Source of the DNA: Desulfobacterales bacterium
Lineage (GTDB): Bacteria; Desulfobacterota; Desulfobacteria; Desulfobacterales; UBA5852
Direction of reading: 5' to 3'
Assembly: GCA_963674755.2 (NCBI GenBank)
Contig: CAXXVS010000003.1
Span: 2,240,001-2,304,000 of the forward strand
DNA length: 64,000 bases
Shown here: positions 5,872 to 64,000 of the stretch, one piece after another
Position numbering within the stretch: position 1 is the stretch's first letter
Layout: each line of letters opens with the position of its first letter
The notes under the pieces: generated by a model
Databases searched by the model: none
Seen by the model: only the letters and a program-made list of their open reading frames with translations
Told to the model about the DNA's origin: nothing
Made by a program: the position numbers and the translations under genes

Positions 5872-6297
5872 ATGACGAAAGAATGCTGCCAATCCAACAA
5901 CCACGTTATGATTCTGGCCTGTTCGGGCGCATCCAACGTCGGCCAGCTCAGCAACCAGGCGGCCATCGAACTGACCCGGGAAGGGTATGGCAAGATGTTC
6001 TGCCTGGCCGGGATCGGCGGGCAGTTGTCCGGCTTCGTGCAGTCGGCCAGGGATGTCCCCCATCTGGTGGCGATCGACGGCTGCCAGGTGGGTTGTGCCA
6101 AGGCCATCCTGGACCAGGCCGGCATCGAGACGAAAAACTACATCGTGCTGACCGACAACCCCGGGATCGAAAAGAACAAGGACTTCGAACTCAAGCGTGA
6201 GGAGATCGAACAGGTGAAATCCACGGTCAAGGGGCTGCCGCTTGCCGTGGGGGCACCGCCGGTCTCCGGCTCCGGTGGGTGCTGTTCCTGCTCCTGA
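5872..6297 (+). CDS. DGC-domain putative zinc-binding protein
   Basis: ACSGASNVGQ, MFCLAGIGG, AIDGC motifs; Cys-rich tail. Confidence 0.85.
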   Translation: MTKECCQSNNHVMILACSGASNVGQLSNQAAIELTREGYGKMFCLAGIGGQLSGFVQSARDVPHLVAIDGCQVGCAKAILDQAGIETKNYIVLTDNPGIEKNKDFELKREEIEQVKSTVKGLPLAVGAPPVSGSGGCCSCS

Positions 6298-6338
6298 ACC
6301 TGTCCGGATAATGCGAATTGCCTGAAGGAGGTTACGGT

Positions 6339-6731
6339 TTGAACCAATCCGTCCGCGTTTTGCTCATAGTCGTATGTTTTTTGTTGTTCGGGGGAACGTC
6401 CCTCATCGCCGGCGAGCCGGTCGAAGTACCCGTCAAAGGCATGGTGACCATGGTGGACCTGGGGGCTGACAAATGCATTCCCTGTAAGATGATGGCCCCC
6501 ATTATTGAGAAGGTGCGTAAGGATTTCGAGGGCCGGGCCGCCATCGTTTTCCTCGATGTCTGGAAGGATTCCAGCCACGGACGGCGGTTCGGCATCCGCG
6601 CCATTCCGACCCAGATTTTTTTCGACGCCGAAGGCAAGGAAGTATTTCGCCACATGGGATTCATGGATGAGAAGAGCATCGTGGCCAAGCTTTACGAGCT
6701 GGGGGTTCCCAGGCCTGAGACGACGCAGTAG
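6339..6731 (+). CDS. Exported thioredoxin-family protein
   Basis: AAGGAGG RBS then TTG 6339; signal/TM segment, DLGADKCIPCKMM, GIRAIPTQIFFD. Confidence 0.85.
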   Translation: MNQSVRVLLIVVCFLLFGGTSLIAGEPVEVPVKGMVTMVDLGADKCIPCKMMAPIIEKVRKDFEGRAAIVFLDVWKDSSHGRRFGIRAIPTQIFFDAEGKEVFRHMGFMDEKSIVAKLYELGVPRPETTQ

Positions 6732-7077
6732 GGCCGTCGAATCTCTACGGGCGGCTGCCGGGCCTGGAGGAAGTAGGGCATGCCTTTGCCAGGGAATCAA
6801 CCTGAGGAAAACAAATCGGCACTTGCCCATCCTGAAGGAAATCAAATTGGAAGAGATGTCCGCTCCATCCGGCGGGATCTGTTCAAGCCATTTAAGGGCC
6901 TGCCGCCATCGCGTTCCCCCAAGGTTGATGCAGCGTTTGCTGGTACGGGTTACCGATAATCAGTGTGGCTCCAGCAGAACGTCCAGTTGCCGTAAATCGC
7001 AGGGCGTCATAACGGAAGGTTTTTCAATTCCGTGTGGCAGCAGGCCGGCCTGCCGATCGATAAACAGGGGTAACGCC

Positions 7078-7380
7078 ATGAACGAGGAACAGATCCTGGA
7101 GGACCACAACCACGAAGAAAACGGATGCGTGTGCCATGACCACACGGAGGATAGTCACCTGCATGGCTGCGCAGGCCACCACCACGGACCGCCGTTGCAG
7201 GACACCAGCGGTCCCCGGCTGCTCGCCACCCTGGCGTTGAACCTGGTCATTCCGACAGCCCAGATCGTCGCTTCCATGCCCATGGCCCAACGGCTGGTCA
7301 TGGCCGAGTTTTTTCGCTTTTCTTCCCAATTGAAAGTCCTGTGGGAAGACAAAGGTGGTGCGCAGGATACCGACCTTTGA
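7078..7380 (+). pseudogene. Truncated CzcD/ZitB-like cation diffusion facilitator (His-rich N-terminus and first TM only)
   Basis: His/Cys-rich leader, then RLLATLALNLVIPTAQIV typical of CDF TM1; similarity stops near 7270. Confidence 0.55.
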
Positions 7381-56481: not shown

Positions 56482-56490
56482 GTGAAAAAG

Positions 56491-58329
56491 ATGAATAATT
56501 TTGAAACACCACCAAGGAGTACCACCAAAATCAAACCAAGGACGAAGATGTTTAGGTGGTGGAAGGAAGCCGAACTGATTTCGAACAGGTGGTTTATTCA
56601 CAGAGCAATTCCGCCCAGTCAAATGGGGATTATTTATTTCTGCTTTGACATTAAACTTGGCCAACCTATGGTAGTCAAGTCATTACCTTTCGAATCTTTG
56701 TCGGATATGAAAGCGCAAGAACGATTTGTTAATGAATGTAAAACCTGGGTGGATTTAGGAAACGATCCGAATATTGTAAAAGCGTATTTTGTTGAATTAG
56801 TGAATGGGTATCCATATGTTTTCGTAGAATGGATAGATGGCAAAGACATTTATAATGCCGGACTGGATGCATGGATAGGGACGCATAGCCTGTCTATCGA
56901 TCGCTCATTAGATATTGCCGCCCAGATATGTGATGGTATGAGTTATGCCGCAAAAATATTTAAGAAAAAGGAACAAGTATTCATACATCGGGATATCAAA
57001 CCCTCTAATATATTGATTACGGCTGATTGGAGGGCTAAAGTTACTGATTTTGGCATCGCAAAGATGAGGTTGAATGAGTATCTTGTAAAGTCTAAAGGGG
57101 TGAAAGAATCTTCCCTGGAGTATAGTGATTTCCTTGGAACTCCTCAATATATGTCGCCAGAACATTTCGATGATCCTACTTCCGTAGATTGTCGCAGTGA
57201 TATTTATTCTTTTGGTTGCACTCTCTTTGAAATGATAACCGGACAACATGTGTTTAAATCTGATTCTTGGGAGGCATGGCGAGAAGCTCATGTGAACCAA
57301 TCAGCACCCAGACTCAAAGAAATTTGCCCAGAAATACCACAACATATTGATGAATTGATCAAAAGCTGCCTATGCAAAAATCCAGGAGATCGGCCACAAA
57401 GTTTTGAAGAATTAAAAGAGCGGCTGTTTACTAACGTTTTGAATTCAATGAAGAAGCTGGATAAAACCAGCTCGTTTTTGGATTTAATGAATAAAGGCAC
57501 GTCGCTTGACTCTTTGGGAAAATTTAACGATGCAATTCCATACTTTGATAAAGCTGAGGGAGCTCTAAGTGCGATTGATGAAGGACTCGACAAAACTATC
57601 TCTGAGTTTATGCTTGCCTGTAACCGGGCGATTACCCTTGAACATATAGGAGATTTTATTGAATCAATCGCTCAGTGGGACAAAGCATCGGAGTTGGCTG
57701 AAAAAATACCATCTGGTTATAGGAGTATGGTCTCCAGCCTTCCACTTAATAAAGCTTCAGCACTGTTGGGTAAAGTTTTGACCATTGCAACTAAAGGTGA
57801 CATTAACCAAGCGATCGAACTTTGCAGAAGTGTTTTGGATGAACAGCCTAATAATGCGATTGCAGTTTCACGAATGGGATACTTATTAGTGCGTAATGAA
57901 CAATATCATGAAGCTATACCTTGGTGTGAGCGTGCTATTAAGGTTAATGCTCACGATCCTGACTCCTTTGCAAATCTTGGGGCAGCTCTTCACGAAGTTG
58001 GCGAAATTGAACGAGCCCATAAAGTTCTTCAAAAAGCTCTTGACTTGGCTCCAACACATTCAAAAGCCTTATATAGCATGGGAACTTTACTGCTCCAGAA
58101 TGGCTCAACTGAGCAATCTATTCAGTATTTGCGGAAAAGCGTCAAGATAAATCCTCAGTTTAGTGAAGCGTGGAACCATCTCGGGATAGCCTTGCATAAC
58201 TCCAATGACCCAGATTGTAGAACTTGCTTTGAACAGGCTTTACGCGTAGATCAAAATAACCAAATGGCATTGCGCAATTTGACAGGTATAATTCAACAAG
58301 AGGAAAATTCCAGTCCAAGGGGTATTTAG
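56491..58329 (+). CDS. Hanks-type Ser/Thr protein kinase with C-terminal TPRs
   Basis: VVK, HRDIKPSN, DFG, GTPQYMSPE, SDIYSFG; TPR consensus repeats. AGGTGA RBS before ATG 56491 (GTG 56482 possible). Confidence 0.9.
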   Translation: MNNFETPPRSTTKIKPRTKMFRWWKEAELISNRWFIHRAIPPSQMGIIYFCFDIKLGQPMVVKSLPFESLSDMKAQERFVNECKTWVDLGNDPNIVKAYFVELVNGYPYVFVEWIDGKDIYNAGLDAWIGTHSLSIDRSLDIAAQICDGMSYAAKIFKKKEQVFIHRDIKPSNILITADWRAKVTDFGIAKMRLNEYLVKSKGVKESSLEYSDFLGTPQYMSPEHFDDPTSVDCRSDIYSFGCTLFEMITGQHVFKSDSWEAWREAHVNQSAPRLKEICPEIPQHIDELIKSCLCKNPGDRPQSFEELKERLFTNVLNSMKKLDKTSSFLDLMNKGTSLDSLGKFNDAIPYFDKAEGALSAIDEGLDKTISEFMLACNRAITLEHIGDFIESIAQWDKASELAEKIPSGYRSMVSSLPLNKASALLGKVLTIATKGDINQAIELCRSVLDEQPNNAIAVSRMGYLLVRNEQYHEAIPWCERAIKVNAHDPDSFANLGAALHEVGEIERAHKVLQKALDLAPTHSKALYSMGTLLLQNGSTEQSIQYLRKSVKINPQFSEAWNHLGIALHNSNDPDCRTCFEQALRVDQNNQMALRNLTGIIQQEENSSPRGI

Positions 58330-58464
58330 GGGACATTCTATATTCCCCTTGTCAACAAAATAATTAAAATAGAATAATCAAATAGTTACAATTGTTGTCA
58401 GAGACAAGAAACACTTCTCCTGTCGGTTTTGTAGATCGGCGAGTATCTCTCCAGTCGGCGAACT

Positions 58465-58635
58465 CATGGCCTGATCGTTACAGTTATCCGGTGTCCAGCC
58501 GGAAACGGCGGCACCCATCATTCCTTATCCAGGCTTGGAGTTCAGAGAGAGGCCCGGGTATTGTCCCTCCAGAGGTTATGACCTCAACGTTGTTGAAAGG
58601 GCTCTCTCGCCGAACAAACAGCTTTGTTTGTAATT
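58465..58635 (-). ncRNA. Predicted IS110 bridge RNA (seekRNA): 5' stem-loop, target-binding loop, donor-binding loop
   Basis: Two stem/internal-loop/hairpin modules. Loop strands UCAACAACGU and AGGGAC match the target; GGAAUG and AUAAC match the circle junction. Ends approximate. Confidence 0.78.
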
Positions 58636-58647
58636 TGCTACAGCGCC

Positions 58648-59297
58648 TTAACTGGTCAGCAAAGCGGGATCATAATCTGTATCGTCGCGCATCATACACC
58701 AAGCAATGACCAGCATTTTGACGGCCAATTTAACCCGCATCTTGGTCCGGATGCCGCGCTCACGTTCCCGGCCTTGAAGATAACGGGTGAACAAAGCGCG
58801 GAAGCCATCGTTGTGATACGAGGCGATCTGCGCTGCTTGATAAAGAGCGTAACGCAGGTCGCTGTTACCACGTTTGGAGATCACCGGTACGGCTGTATCA
58901 CTGGTCTTGCCGCTGCGTTTAGCATTCAAATCATAACCGGCCAAACGGATGAGCTGCTTTCGTCCGGCAAAGCGGTGCGGATCCCCGATGCGGGCGATCA
59001 CCTGGGAGGCGATGTAGGGGCCAAAACCCGGGATCGTTAGCAGTCGCCGATAGGATGAGAAGCGCTGACAGATTCGTTCAATGCGCTTTTCCGTGCGCTC
59101 AATTCGTTCGCGCAAATCATACAGGCGATCCACCAGCAGCCGGGCTTCAAAGCGGACCGCGGCATCCGTGGGGCAGCCGATGGAGACCGCCGCGGCATCG
59201 TAGATGCGCTGCAAACGCTTGACTTGACGCAGTCCCCGGTCGCGATCGGTCACCCGGCGGAGGAACTCGTTAAAGGGCATGGCGCTGATCGTGCGCG
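58648..59297 (-). pseudogene. IS110 recombinase, C-terminal part (Tnp20 domain)
   Basis: LLTIPGFGPYIA, LAGYDL..RSGK (catalytic Ser), ISKRGN; in frame with 62001..62634 once IS21 and one GATCC are removed. Confidence 0.88.
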
Positions 59298-59393
59298 GAT
59301 CCTGTCAATGATCACCCTAATGAGGCCACCTATGATCGCCTTAATGGGGCCATTTCAAACCGACCAAAAAGCGGTTTTCGGACCGGCTTCAAA

Positions 59394-60197
59394 CTATTGT
59401 TTTTCACCCCCTTTCGAACCGCCGTTTTTGGGCGTTTTTTGACATGTGTTTTTAGCTGATTTGGAGACCGGTCGCGGGGAGCGATAGCTCTTGCCCTCCA
59501 GCACGACGGTGTAGGCACCGTGGCGCAGCCGGTCGACGGTGGCTTCCCCCAAAATCCGGTTTGGAAAGGCGTCGGTCCATTCCGGGATGTCCAGGTTCGA
59601 GGTCACGATGGTGCTTTTGCGCTCGTAGCGCTCTGAGATGACATCGTGGAAGTCCTCGTCCTGAGCGGGTTTGAGGGGTTTAAGGCCGAAGTCGTCAATG
59701 ATCAGGAGATCGACGCCGGCGATCTTTGCAAAATGCCGATCGTAGCCGTTGGTTGCCCGGGCGGCGTTTAGCTGGGAGAGCATCTTGGATGCGGAAGTAA
59801 AGAGCACGCTGTGCCCGTTTCGAATGGCGCTGTGGCCGAGGGCCTGCGCCAGATGGCTTTTTCCCGTTCCGCACGGGCCGATGATGAACACACAGACCCG
59901 CTCGGCCATGAACCGGCACGAGGCCAGCTCCATGACCAGGGCGCGATTGATGTTGGGATTGTAGGCGAAGTCAAACTCTTCCAGGGTTTTCTGGTTACGG
60001 AAGTTGGCCCGCCGCAGGGCGGAGGCTAATTTCTTCTGGTTGCGACGGGCGATTTCGTCGGTGATGATGGTGGCCAGAAAGTCCATGTAGGACATCTTGT
60101 TTTCGATGGCCTGCCGGTTGCGCGACTCGATGGAGTCCAGGATTCCCGACAGGCGAAGCTGCTTTAGCATGGGCGTCAGATCGGGTATCGGATTCAT
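59394..60197 (-). CDS. istB: IS21 helper ATPase IstB
   Basis: GPCGTGKSHLA, LLIIDDFG, TSN, DRLRH, GKSYR; ATGA overlap with istA. Confidence 0.93.
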   Translation of the reverse strand: MNPIPDLTPMLKQLRLSGILDSIESRNRQAIENKMSYMDFLATIITDEIARRNQKKLASALRRANFRNQKTLEEFDFAYNPNINRALVMELASCRFMAERVCVFIIGPCGTGKSHLAQALGHSAIRNGHSVLFTSASKMLSQLNAARATNGYDRHFAKIAGVDLLIIDDFGLKPLKPAQDEDFHDVISERYERKSTIVTSNLDIPEWTDAFPNRILGEATVDRLRHGAYTVVLEGKSYRSPRPVSKSAKNTCQKTPKNGGSKGGEKQ

Positions 60198-61744
60198 GAC
60201 GGCCTCCTTTCCCGGTACACCTGGTGGCGAAGAAAACGGCCGTTGCCGGTGTACGCCGCAGCTAGCGGGATCACGTTGGGCTGCTCGTAGAGCGGCGCCT
60301 GGTCAAGGCCCTGATGCAGGATGCTTTTTACCGTACGGTATTTGACGTTGTCGAAGTGAAGCGCCCGGCGGCAGGCGGCTTCCAGGCGGGCCGTGCCGTA
60401 CTTTTTGCTCAAGCCGATTACGCCCTGGGCCGCGCGCAGATTGTCGAGCACTTTGTGGGCAAACAGCCGGCGGACGAGCCGATGACAATCCGGGCCGACG
60501 GCTTCGGCCTGCTTCAGACACCACTGTGGGTCCTGCATCTTGTAGGCCAGGGCTTCCGGCGGCATGTGGCCGTCGACCGTCGAGCGCTGGCCGGCGCGCT
60601 TGAGCCGCGGGTGGGTGGCCACGAGCTTCACGTCCTGGTAGAGTTTTACGGTCGTGTCGGTGGCTTTTAGCATCAGCTCCTGGTGCACCAAGCGGAAGGG
60701 CGCCGAGTAGTAGGCCTTTTCAAACTGCACATGGCAATTGCCGTGCACCTTGACCCGGGTCCAGACGGCGAGTTCCACGGGAACATCTGGCAGCGGCTTT
60801 AAAAAGTGTTTTTCGGTCTCCGCAAACATCTCCAGCGGCCTTCGGTGGGTTGTGCCGTGGATGCGGTTGCCGGCCCTTTCCAGCAGCCAGCGGACAAGCT
60901 GCTCGTTGGCGTCGGCCAGGGTTCGGAAGGTACGAAGCGGCACGAAGTTGTTTTTGACATATTTGACACCGGACTCGACCCGGCCCTTTTTCTGCGGGTC
61001 CCGGACGGGACACGGCGAAATGAGAAAGCCGTATCCTTCGGCCAGCTCGCCGTAGGAGCGCTGAACGTCCGGATCGGTGTAGCAGGCCCGGGTGATGGCG
61101 CACTTGGGATTGTCGATGATCATTTTGGCCGCCACGCCATTGAAAAACGCGAATGCGCGCCGATGGCAGGCCAGCCAGGTTGCAACTTTCTGGTCGGTGA
61201 CGATCTCGGCATACATGTGGCGGCTGAAGCACAGCGTCATCACAAAGATCCAGGTCTTGATCACCGCGCCGGTAAACACGTCCTTGATCGTGGGCCCTTT
61301 GCCGAAGTCAACCTGGGCTGCTTCGCCTGGGGCAAAGTCCAGAACGCAAGAGGCTTTGGGGCTCGCGTGGCGCAGCTTTCTTACCTGGCGCCGGACAGAG
61401 GAATAACTGCCGGAAAATCCGAACTGCCCGACCAAGGCCTCATAGATCGTCGTGGCTTGAATGCCCTCTGCGACCCATTGCTTGATCTGATCCGCATGCG
61501 GCTGGGTCAACGGGGCTTGGTTTTGGCCGGGGGATCTTTTAACCTCGAAGATCTTGGCGAGTTGTTCGTCGTCGGGCAGCGGGCCGCTATTGAGCCAGCC
61601 CTTTTGCCCAGCGACCTCCCGCACGGCGGCGCATTTGGTCCGTCCGATCAGTTGGCTTTTCGCGATGGCGCGGTCGCTTTGTCCAAGGCGCATACGGTGG
61701 ATGACTTGTCGGTACTGATGCATCTCGATTCTCCTGTTGGCCAT
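60194..61744 (-). CDS. istA: IS21 transposase IstA
   Basis: N-terminal HTH, PGEAAQVDFG, IIDNPK, KGRVE DDE motifs; GGGAGG RBS before ATG 61744. Confidence 0.93.
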   Translation of the reverse strand: MANRRIEMHQYRQVIHRMRLGQSDRAIAKSQLIGRTKCAAVREVAGQKGWLNSGPLPDDEQLAKIFEVKRSPGQNQAPLTQPHADQIKQWVAEGIQATTIYEALVGQFGFSGSYSSVRRQVRKLRHASPKASCVLDFAPGEAAQVDFGKGPTIKDVFTGAVIKTWIFVMTLCFSRHMYAEIVTDQKVATWLACHRRAFAFFNGVAAKMIIDNPKCAITRACYTDPDVQRSYGELAEGYGFLISPCPVRDPQKKGRVESGVKYVKNNFVPLRTFRTLADANEQLVRWLLERAGNRIHGTTHRRPLEMFAETEKHFLKPLPDVPVELAVWTRVKVHGNCHVQFEKAYYSAPFRLVHQELMLKATDTTVKLYQDVKLVATHPRLKRAGQRSTVDGHMPPEALAYKMQDPQWCLKQAEAVGPDCHRLVRRLFAHKVLDNLRAAQGVIGLSKKYGTARLEAACRRALHFDNVKYRTVKSILHQGLDQAPLYEQPNVIPLAAAYTGNGRFLRHQVYRERRPS

Positions 61745-61848
61745 GGCATTCCTCCCGGCGGCTGGTGGTTTGCCGGAAAGACTTACCAGATTGTGGATGT
61801 AAGGTCCGAGATGCTTTTTGGTTTTATACGCGTTTTTCCCTGCGGCAG

Positions 61849-61995
61849 GTGGCCTCATTACGGTGATCACCAACTGGCCTCATTAGGGTGATCATCAAGT
61901 GGCTCCATTAGGGTGCTCACAAAGTGGCCTCATTAGGGTGATCACAGGGTGGCCCCATTAGGGTGCTCATGGAATGGCTCTATAGCAGTGACCAT
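61849..61995. repeat. Six tandem 25-bp IS21 end repeats
   Basis: Consensus TGGCCYCATTAGGGTGATCA starting at 61850, 61875, 61900, 61925, 61950, 61975; two inverted copies at the other end (about 59309..59354). Confidence 0.85.
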
Positions 61996-62000
61996 TAACA

Positions 62001-62634
62001 GATCCAGGCAACTGCGGACGATGGCCAGATTCTCTTTAAGACAACTGCCCCACAGGCGATCCATCTCGGGGAAGTGGCGAACCAGAAGCCCATTGCGGAT
62101 CTGCATGCGTACGCTGTGTTCATCGCGTTTGAGCCGCTTGCGAAGTGAAAGCAAGCTGCGCAACGCAGTAAGCTCCGCCGAAGGCTTTTCAAAGAACTGG
62201 CATTTGCCCTGCGCCATCAGGTCGGCCACATTGGCGCTGTCTTTGGTGTCGTTCTTATCCCAGCGCCCGTCAAGACTCTCGCGGTTGTCGGCAATGGCTT
62301 TGTTGGAGACCAGTACCAGAAGTTGATCCTGTTCCAAAAGCCAGTTGGCCAAAGGCTTGTGGTAATTGCCGGTGGGCTCCAGTCCGAAAGCGACCCTTCG
62401 GCAGGAATGGGCCACCATCAGTTGTTCAGCTCTTTCGATGAGCTGCTCGAAACCGGTGCGGTCGTTGTCAAAGATCAGGCGCTTTAGGAGCGTCTTGCCG
62501 GTGGCGGTGCCGAAGAAGGCATGATGGCGTTCCTTAGCCACATCGATGCCGACGAGCATATAATCCTGGCTGCCTCGCACGGAGGTGCGAAATTGACAGT
62601 ATTCCTCGTACCTGCTAATTTCTCTGTTACCCAT
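62001..62634 (-). pseudogene. IS110 recombinase, N-terminal DEDD (RuvC-like) part
   Basis: GIDVAK, GLEPTG, KNDTKDS; GAGGAGG RBS. Confidence 0.9.
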
Positions 62635-62768
62635 AATAGCCTCCTCGTAGCTCGTGTTGAAGGTTTGTCCACCTTTGTGCTACCTGGAGGCTATTTTCTT
62701 TTCAAGGCGATAATTACTTTTGTTTTTACTACTCTTGGAGGTATATTCTCTAACTATTTCAATATATA

Positions 62769-62824
62769 ACGTTGTTGACTAAATGTACAAGAGTTGGATT
62801 TGTACACTTAGTCAACAACGTCCC
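62769..62824. repeat. REP-like palindrome used as the IS110 target
   Basis: ACGTTGTTGACTAAATGTACAA-N9-TTGTACACTTAGTCAACAACGT (21/22 paired), extended by GGG/CCC in the reconstructed empty site. Confidence 0.8.
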
Positions 62825-63357
62825 TTTTCCTCTAGGCGGCACCGAAACGCTCAAAATGAAATTGACGCTGTCCTTTTAAAACAGAGCTTGGATGGATCAT
62901 CGCAATTGTCTCGCAATGTGGTGGTCAATAATGTGCAAGCAGGAAGTCTGAGCGATAGGACCCCTCAGGAGAAACCGAAGATCCGGGATAGGGCCGCTTT
63001 AATGGATGATGTCAGTATGACCTATCGCTAGCCGACAGCCATACGTCAGCAATGCTTAAAAAATCAAATCGTTTTTGGCGGGCCATCCCATCGCGCCTGC
63101 AATTCAGGGGCGGCGACCCCTGCTGCAATAGCCATCCCGTTGCGGATGTTCCGATCCGCTGGGGAAAGGGGCTTATATGCCAGCGGCATCGAGGGTGTTA
63201 AATGCGGACATCAATCCCAAAAAGCGTAGGAAAGGGAATGTGGTTGTCGCTGTATGGGGATAGTCGAAGGATATGAAAACCGGCCATCGGTAACTCATCG
63301 GGCGTTGCAAGCGTGCTCAAAGTGCCGCTCCGCTTCCCTCCAATGATAACGTGTGAC

Positions 63358-64000
63358 TTATTGCCCAGGCGTCAAAATTGTTGTCATATAGGCGGTTGCA
63401 AAATCGATGAAGGTGCGTACGCCCAATGGCAAGCGTCTCTGCACAGGATAGACGATGTGAGCCGGCAGATCTTCGGCTTGCCATTTCGGTAAAACCCTTA
63501 TCAGCCGCTCCGAAACAATATCTTCGGCGATCAACCACTCCGGTAAAACCGCAACCCCAAGTCCCATCCGCGCTGCTTCGCGCAAGCTGGTTACACCTTC
63601 GGACGTTAAGACGGGCGTTATCGCCACCCTCTGCTTTTTCTGCCCTGTTGCATAAATGAGGACTTCCTTCTTCCCGCCGAATTGAACGCCGGAAAGCGCC
63701 AGCCACGGCCAGGACTGAAGTTGAATGGGTTGGGAGACGGTCTTTTGCTTCTTTAGAAACTTGGGGGAAGCGACGAGATAGCGTTTAATGACCGGAAGCG
63801 GGTGCGCGATGATCGTATCGTCGGTAATGGTGCCGGCGATGATGCCAAGATCGCATCCTTCTTCAAGCATACGCATGGGACGGTTGGAATAGGCAAGGTC
63901 AACCGTCACGGCCGGGTTGGTCTGAATAAAGCTTGTGACCAAGCGGCTGACAACATTCTGACCGAAATCGATTGTCGCGAACAGACGGATATGACCCTGA
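63358..64000 (-). CDS. LysR-family regulator (CrgA/DmlR-like), 5'-truncated by the window edge
   Basis: GHIRL..FG, EEGCDLGI, LVASP, GLGVAVLPEW; frame open to the window end. Confidence 0.88.
   Translation of the reverse strand, partial: QGHIRLFATIDFGQNVVSRLVTSFIQTNPAVTVDLAYSNRPMRMLEEGCDLGIIAGTITDDTIIAHPLPVIKRYLVASPKFLKKQKTVSQPIQLQSWPWLALSGVQFGGKKEVLIYATGQKKQRVAITPVLTSEGVTSLREAARMGLGVAVLPEWLIAEDIVSERLIRVLPKWQAEDLPAHIVYPVQRRLPLGVRTFIDFATAYMTTILTPGQ

Follow-up and report, generated by a model that had tools for sequence, protein, structure and literature searches.

In IS621, as set out in the excerpted text of two reports (PMC11208160, PMC11208158), a recombinase with DEDD and Tnp domains and a Ser-Gly (SG) motif is accompanied by one bridge RNA, encoded in the left end, in which a target loop is followed by a donor loop. 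The left guides of IS621 equal the top strand and the right guides complement it; the right-hand guides are short, the natural core CT is contained in all four guides, and the two bases past the core complement act as handshake guides, which once strands have been exchanged pair with the non-cognate DNA. IS621 also has a junction promoter and a REP-type target. In the IS110 group the RNA is typically found in the left end, upstream of the recombinase gene, and in the IS1111 group typically downstream of it (PMC11208160, PMC11187229, in the parts cited here), and IS110-type exceptions with a downstream non-coding region are mentioned by Siddiquee (PMC11187229). From the same excerpt, the IS110-type ISEc21 has an upstream non-coding region, a 358-aa transposase, a bottom-strand match 5' of the top-strand match, a circle-junction promoter, no target duplication and a linear target inside IS3-family genes. 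The IS1111 elements ISEc11, ISKpn4 and ISPa11 have guide RNAs downstream of the transposase gene that presumably arise by processing of a longer transcript. Their transposases have 330-350 aa, their subterminal inverted repeats are long, their strand-match order is the opposite one and their targets are structured repeats (PMC11187229). REP-type targeting is already known for IS110-family elements: ISPpu9 of Pseudomonas putida inserts in conserved intergenic REP sequences and, in the excerpted account (PMC12288879), has alternative end boxes, an upstream bridge RNA, the core AG, no hybrid promoter in its circles, and a downstream RNA, Ssr9, that is not the guide. ISPpu10, another IS110-family element, inserts in copies of one conserved intergenic sequence (10.64898/2026.03.19.712850, in excerpt), and the excerpt of a further report (10.1101/2024.06.21.599552) does not state the RNA location.

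We analysed a window of 64,000 nucleotides, by which we mean the whole stretch of Desulfobacterales DNA, and found on its minus strand an interrupted IS110-family insertion sequence whose non-coding end behind the recombinase gene is very probably a bridge (seek) RNA gene. The bases of this reading are sequence matches, the stems, guide/flank and guide/end covariation and the protein family, and from them we infer transcription, processing, protein binding and catalysis. The element agrees with IS621 in all the respects described above for domain composition, loop order, guide logic, short right-hand guides with bases in handshake positions and REP-type target, and its junction has a promoter-like layout. 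It differs from IS621 in that the RNA lies 3' of the gene, GT is the natural core, the recombinase is 427 aa long as against the 328-aa chain of the solved structure, with low similarity (E 9e-15), and a long-range closing helix may be present. With ISEc21 it has in common the order of strand matches, the circle-junction promoter (here promoter-like) and the lack of target duplication, whereas the placement of the non-coding region, the protein length and the type of target are unlike. With ISEc11, ISKpn4 and ISPa11 it shares the downstream position of the guide RNA and a structured repeat as target, and not the transposase length, the inverted repeats or the strand-match order. Its insertion in a REP-type sequence is as in ISPpu9, whose alternative end boxes recall the odd left-end remnants described below; the upstream RNA, the core and the circles of ISPpu9 are unlike what is seen here. 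ISYps2 (Yersinia pseudotuberculosis pGDT4) is among the closest named matches listed from a plasmid collection; the alignment with its IS110-family transposase of 414 aa covered 92% of the query at 30% identity, and its gene is followed by some 400 nt of non-coding DNA and preceded by 72 nt, but, unlike the window element, it gave no match behind the gene to the covariance model R1 introduced below. The features of the element and its surroundings are as follows.

62769..62826, minus strand: REP-like palindrome holding the insertion, GGGACGTTGTTGACTAA...TTAGTCAACAACGT
62769..62778, minus strand: left target half and core, TCAACAAC-GT, equal to the left target guide (10/10)
58333..62768, minus strand: IS110-family element in full, its left-end T at 62768 and its right-end GT at 58334-58333
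62635..62768, minus strand: short left end of 134 nt, starting TATATA(TT), which is -10-like in the circle junction
62002..62634, minus strand: recombinase codons 1-211, DEDD RuvC-like domain (PF01548)
59303..62000, minus strand: nested IS21 of 2698 bp, with istA at 60194-61873 and istB at 59394-60197
58648..59298, minus strand: recombinase codons 212-427 and stop, Tnp domain with RSG motif (PF02371)
58333..58355, minus strand: right-end terminus, a TTGACA -35 box (58355-58350) followed by 17 nt
58329..58332, minus strand: right target flank CCCC, of which the first three C and the core are complementary to GGGAC

The element measures 4436 bp with the nested IS21 and 1733 bp once IS21 and one copy of its target duplication are taken out. 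On the left, TCAACAAC-GT (62778-62769) directly abuts the element end TATATATT; on the right, the element ends in ATAGAAT-GT at 58340-58333, followed by CCCC. These ends were confirmed by two paralogous elements in the genome (L002 and L003) and by empty paralogous sites (L085 and L086). The empty sites are uninterrupted paralogues of the L003 insertion site, TAGTCAACAACGT-CCCCAACTTTCCCC, and confirm insertion at GT without duplication. The target TCAACAAC-GT-CCCC and the circle junction AGAAT-GT-TAT, both reconstructed in the preliminary description, were thus correct, as was the GT core that it had proposed. The last 17 nt of the right end finish with the left-donor sequence TAGAAT and the core GT, and TTGACA stands 17 nt from the right terminus in 58 of the 71 rows of the family alignment. 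In a circle, TTGACA would face the left-end TATATA(TT) at a spacing of 17 or 19 nt according to which hexamer is taken, which by its sequence is a promoter-like layout. A 615-aa Ser/Thr protein kinase with TPR repeats (56482-58329, plus strand) ends 3 nt from the insertion point, so that the IS110 element is placed just behind a convergent kinase gene.

Pfam matches cover both pieces of the recombinase gene: PF01548 at 61942-62634 on the minus strand (E 4.2e-26, 92 bits, cut-off 29) and PF02371 at 58648-59280 on the minus strand (E 7.6e-19). With IS21 set aside the recombinase has 427 aa, and no break other than IS21 was seen in either piece; identity to an intact paralogue is 96% for codons 1-211 and 87% for codons 212-427. 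IS21 was inserted at codon 211/212 with a 5-bp target duplication, GGATC, at 62001-62005 and 59298-59302, and its istA (559 aa) and istB (267 aa) lie on the same strand as the recombinase; several CACCCTAATGAGGCCAC-like repeats occur at its ends. The genome holds two intact 427-aa paralogues, those of L002 and L003, with 82-83% identity over the 3' half. Because its own gene is cut, the window copy would be mobile only with a recombinase supplied by one of these. An intact paralogue (P0001) matched the NCBIfam model NF033542, 'IS110 family RNA-guided transposase', with 196 bits (cut-off 140), and its best solved relatives are IS621 (at the E value given above) and ISCro4. Its KRSGKTS aligns with ESGS of IS621, and by alignment counting the aligned Ser-Gly would correspond to S241-G242 of IS621.

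The RNA is placed 34 nt past the stop codon, in the right end of the element. Its parts, all on the minus strand, are listed below from 5' to 3'.

58614..58631, minus strand: 5' hairpin ACAAACA-AAGC-UGUUUGU, arms 58631-58625 and 58620-58614
58454..58614, minus strand: bridge RNA core, target loop then donor loop (R1 match of 164.9 bits, E 8e-39)
58608-58599 with 58555-58545, minus strand: target-loop stem, GAGAGAGCCC with GGGCCUCUCUC
58587..58596, minus strand: left target guide UCAACAACGU, with family-wide covariation at 58587-58594
58585-58581 with 58576-58572, minus strand: target-loop hairpin, GAGGU with ACCUC
58562..58568, minus strand: right target guide (A)GGGAC and an invariant A at 58562, in a putative handshake position
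58519..58524, minus strand: left donor guide GGAAUG, which fits A-GAATG of the right end with a G.T wobble at the first position
58483..58487, minus strand: AUAAC, perfect complement of GTTAT, in the closest relatives only
58476..58481, minus strand: family-conserved right donor guide GUAAC, pairing with GT+TAT with one G.T, and a G at 58476 that follows it in a putative handshake position
58435..58442, minus strand: CUCGCCGA, possible 3' strand of a closing helix with UUCGGCGAG (58614-58606)

Every motif named in the preliminary description was found on the minus strand at its coordinates, and the three modules reported there were reproduced by a single-sequence fold, which gave a 5' hairpin and two internal loops, the first bearing a small hairpin and the second a longer one, with a z value of only -2.5. 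The 5' hairpin exists as it had been described, but as a family feature it did not hold: it is limited to the window copy and its closest relatives, and across relatives its sequence varies and it is missing in many. At the base of the RNA, UUCGGCGAG can pair with UCGCCGA (58461-58455) or, in competition, with CUCGCCGA (58442-58435), a motif that is the only option present in three relatives; no double compensatory change was seen in the UUCGGCGAG/CUCGCCGA closing helix. The segment 58435-58461 (minus strand) contains two UCGCCGA copies with GGAGAGA between them, and pairing of GGAGAGA with UCUCUCU of the target-loop stem allows alternative folds of the RNA base. An Rfam 15 scan of 57500-63500 returned no bridge RNA family and one sub-threshold miRNA match, which lay on the REP palindrome.

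A protein-based scan with one genome per species yielded 80 loci, mostly from Desulfobacterota metagenome-assembled genomes, with 46-89% identity. The RNA regions of 24 relatives were aligned with MAFFT, and RNAalifold returned 38 pairs, 15 of them with compensatory changes. The covariance model R1 was built from these 24 relatives with 32 base pairs; run over 83 sources, it gave 71 matches to a full-length RNA lying immediately 3' of the gene. In the R1 alignment, 96.4% of cells pair, as against 85.7% in shuffles and 31-49% with slid partners, 22 of the 32 pairs have changed on both sides, and none of 500 shuffles equalled the observed values on any measure; this alignment was fitted to the model and is hence favourable to it, and the slid controls and the independent MAFFT and RNAalifold result agree with it. 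Since G-U pairs are frequent, the transcribed strand is that of the recombinase gene. The two-loop structure with covarying helices is therefore found in homologous IS ends, as the preliminary description had proposed to check, and this covariation supports a bridge RNA strongly, beyond what the modest single-sequence fold provides. The reach of R1 is limited: with filters off it gave a 12-bit match only on the ISYps2 and Paracoccus loci and falls short of both.

In the window, the left target guide identified in the preliminary description matches the left flank at 10 of 10 positions and GTCCC is complementary to the bottom guide, as had been claimed. When the 10-nt guide is compared with the 400 nt upstream of the ATG, its best match falls at the junction and the next one reaches 6/10. 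For the family, left ends were set by the conserved GT/TATATAT, independently of the guide, and the 48 loci with usable flank (those with too little upstream DNA were dropped) gave 45 distinct guide/flank pairs. The left target guide follows the left flank: it matched its own flank at 5.89 of 8 positions on average and the flanks of other elements at 4.55 of 8, a difference that none of 20000 permutations reached. Positions -7, -6 and -5 agree in 76-78% of pairs, with 37-47% expected. At positions -10 and -9 the 45 pairs showed no covariation with the flank, which leaves a left guide of some 6 nt and GT for the family as a whole; of the 10 positions of the proposed guide, only about 8 covary in the family. 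The right target guide GGGAC and its partner GT+CCC are nearly invariant. The exception is one element (L010), with GAAGAC and GT+CTTC, in which the guide differs on both strands and the flanks follow (TGGCATAA 8/8, CTTC/GAAG); the flanks of four elements do not fit the right target guide. Since right-flank and right-donor positions are almost invariant, the covariation there comes from one lineage.

The own flank fits the own guide at only 3-4 of 8 positions in 7 of the 45 elements, which include L003, a paralogue, at 4/8 and, out of three identical Desulfosarcina copies, two. L003 (G000:C1:77721-81691) is a mosaic, with positions 1-700 100% like the window element and positions 700-1500 97% like L002, and its flank agrees with the window guide at 9/10 and with its own guide at 6/10. 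Either L003 recombined with another copy after insertion or it was guided in trans.

On the donor side, 26 rows of the alignment combine GGAAUG with ...AGAATGT, and 25 rows combine GGGAUG with ...AGGATGT. Guide and right end agree at the A/G position in 58 of 58 rows, a count that includes three rows with a possibly wrong right end by pattern, which bears out GGAAUG as the left donor guide. The second core base in this guide is A, where T would match. AUAAC, which had been put forward as the right donor strand, lies where it was said to lie and complements GTTAT, but the guide conserved in the family is instead GUAAC at 58477-58481; AUAAC may be an alternative or additional right donor guide. 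[G/A]UAAC stands at a fixed alignment position and fits the invariant GT+TAT, and its covariation information is nil. In the 53 distinct combinations whose target has C at -3, [G/A/U]UAAC is followed by G, and in two combinations with A or G at -3 it is followed by U. This handshake pattern fits 55 of 55 distinct combinations, with a single varying lineage (L010/L011), and pairing is possible between the A that invariably follows GGGAC and the invariant T preceding the donor core. By analogy with IS621, A 58562 and G 58476 may therefore have a handshake role.

The palindrome that holds the insertion contains in its other arm (62812-62824, plus strand) an intact copy of the 13-nt target. The 13-mer TCAACAACGTCCC has 14 exact copies in the genome, with about 0.2 expected by chance from simple arithmetic; only exact copies count, as at up to one mismatch there are 22 against 16 in a reversed control. 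Palindromic repeats of several types have the 13-mer at their tips. One 19-kb region (L127, G000:C2:1638000-1657000) carries seven exact target 12-mers and a 322-aa open reading frame (6141-7109, minus strand) with an IS200-like Y1 domain (PF01797, E 1.5e-11) that is RAYT-like, bracketed by inverted target-repeat copies at 6119-6130 and 7174-7185. By these inverted repeats around a Y1 gene, the target is a REP/RAYT-type repeat. A reading of the target as integron attC was dropped, as the repeats bracket a Y1 transposase gene and no GTTRRRY core was seen by eye.

Contigs from four RNA libraries contained six short pieces, 88-99% alike and from relatives, of which five lie within 58405-58632 and one over 58657-58770, with the rest of the stretch uncovered. 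These contigs, possibly DNA carry-over, show neither expression nor silence. A promoter and terminator scan detected neither a minus-strand promoter immediately before the RNA nor a terminator. We propose that the RNA is read from the recombinase-gene strand, most likely as the 3' part of the gene transcript, from which it is probably cut. The transcript would fold into two internal loops, in which GGGAC would pair with the top strand of GT+CCC, and GUAAC, or AUAAC in the window copy, with that of the left-end GT+TAT. A recombinase tetramer with the RNA would then join the element circle to the tip of a REP-like palindrome, at a site of 11-13 bp, with strand exchange at GT and no target duplication, and in the circle the right-end TTGACA and the left-end TATATA would form a promoter.

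The preliminary description had noted that the RNA lies downstream of the gene in IS1111-type elements. The RNA could be read as a seekRNA of the IS1111 group and not as an IS110-group bridge RNA, which would leave the mechanism the same and change the subfamily and the loop logic. The long non-coding end of about 310 nt downstream of the gene, against 134 nt upstream, fits this, and so does the palindromic-repeat target, as in several IS1111 members; the left-end position typical of the IS110 group is not seen here. The gene order is IS1111-like, whereas the other features tested point to the IS110 group. The recombinase has 427 aa and not about 330-350 aa; the longest inverted match between the ends, and the only subterminal inverted repeat, is the 6-bp, AT-only TATATT, where IS1111 elements have 7-17 bp; both loops are simple internal loops; and with 'top' taken as the transposase-gene strand, the 5' guide has the top-strand sequence and the 3' guide its complement, so that the bottom-strand match lies 5' of the top-strand match in the IS110-type order. 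Among the plasmid matches listed, moreover, the full-length ones bear generic IS110 names or are ISYps2 or ISBth13, and those from Escherichia and Klebsiella align over the C-terminal domain only. We therefore consider an IS1111 seekRNA improbable; apart from the 3' position of its RNA, the element conforms to the logic of the IS110 group. The 3' region might also act as DNA, for example as subterminal recombinase-binding sites, the flank identity being target sequence copied into the element. To this we give hardly any weight, even though the RNA-library contigs do not establish a transcript and several elements sit at sites that fit their own guide poorly: the stems have stayed paired by way of G-U intermediates, which in duplex DNA or on the opposite strand would read A-C, covarying helices enclose the guide, which lies some 250 nt into the element, and the layout reproduces the four-guide logic of IS621 including the core overlap and the handshake positions.

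A two-loop bridge RNA of an IS110-family recombinase of 427 aa with a GT core, as the preliminary description had it, is thus supported, which leaves the state of this particular copy. The RNA gene in the window could be an inert relic, neither expressed nor used, given that IS21 splits the recombinase gene at codon 211/212, that the natural promoter is 2.7 kb away and that no promoter-like site lies directly upstream of the RNA. Several observations make this doubtful, while leaving it a good deal more credible than either of the preceding readings. The R1 score of the window RNA (164.9 bits) is on a par with those of the intact copies (165 and 163.3 bits), its guide still matches the flank at 10/10 with 14 exact sites in the genome, and two intact paralogous recombinases are present. 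Read-through may occur, as istA and istB lie on the same strand, and the L003 site, as noted above, fits the window guide better than its own.

The favoured reading, a bridge RNA gene, makes the window RNA a clear natural example of the system described in 2024, and a new mechanism is not revealed. A natural bridge RNA whose core is GT and whose recombinase has 427 aa is well supported, and 3'-encoded guide RNAs are thereby shown outside the classical IS1111 type. The 71-sequence alignment marks the loop positions that carry specificity, which is useful for choosing or engineering bridge recombinases. Tentatively, and with less confidence than we would place in its opposite, the Desulfobacterota-centred clade might be a distinct architectural class with IS110 guide logic, the RNA behind the gene and possibly a long-range closing helix, in which guides are maybe exchangeable modules. 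The idea of exchangeable modules comes from three observations: each of the three copies in the genome has a target guide different from the others, and one copy lacks a working recombinase; L003 is a mosaic; and ten relatives have an extra target-only loop. The three copies offer a natural case for asking about trans action of guides between copies, and the extra loop could be a natural second target specificity.

This extra module was seen in ten relatives (L012-L018, L021, L077, L052) between the stop codon and the full bridge RNA. It consists of a target-type loop only (for example L015:2760-2876), with its own covarying stem and a different left guide, such as UCAUCCCCGU. In one Desulfosarcina copy (L016) the flank fits the extra guide at 6/8 and the main guide at 4/8, and in the other copies it does not.

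Some left ends depart from the usual form. L010 (1380-1420), whose guide is the most divergent among the relatives, has no TATATAT start at its left end; its left flank TGGCATAA, 8/8 to its own guide, lies about 45 nt nearer the start codon, and the left end looks shortened or alternative. In addition, two REP-type sites (L110, G000:C3:1151870-1151932, and L111, G000:C3:1231265-1231327) carry 38-bp left-end remnants, in which the first 36 nt of the IS110 left end and GT are joined straight to CCCC. By-eye comparison yielded no convincing guide match to the internal ...GAGA-GT site as a cause of the remnants, and a pattern search for the remnant junction in the own genome and 60 relatives gave matches in the own genome only. 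The remnants look like footprints of recombination at an internal GT of the left end.
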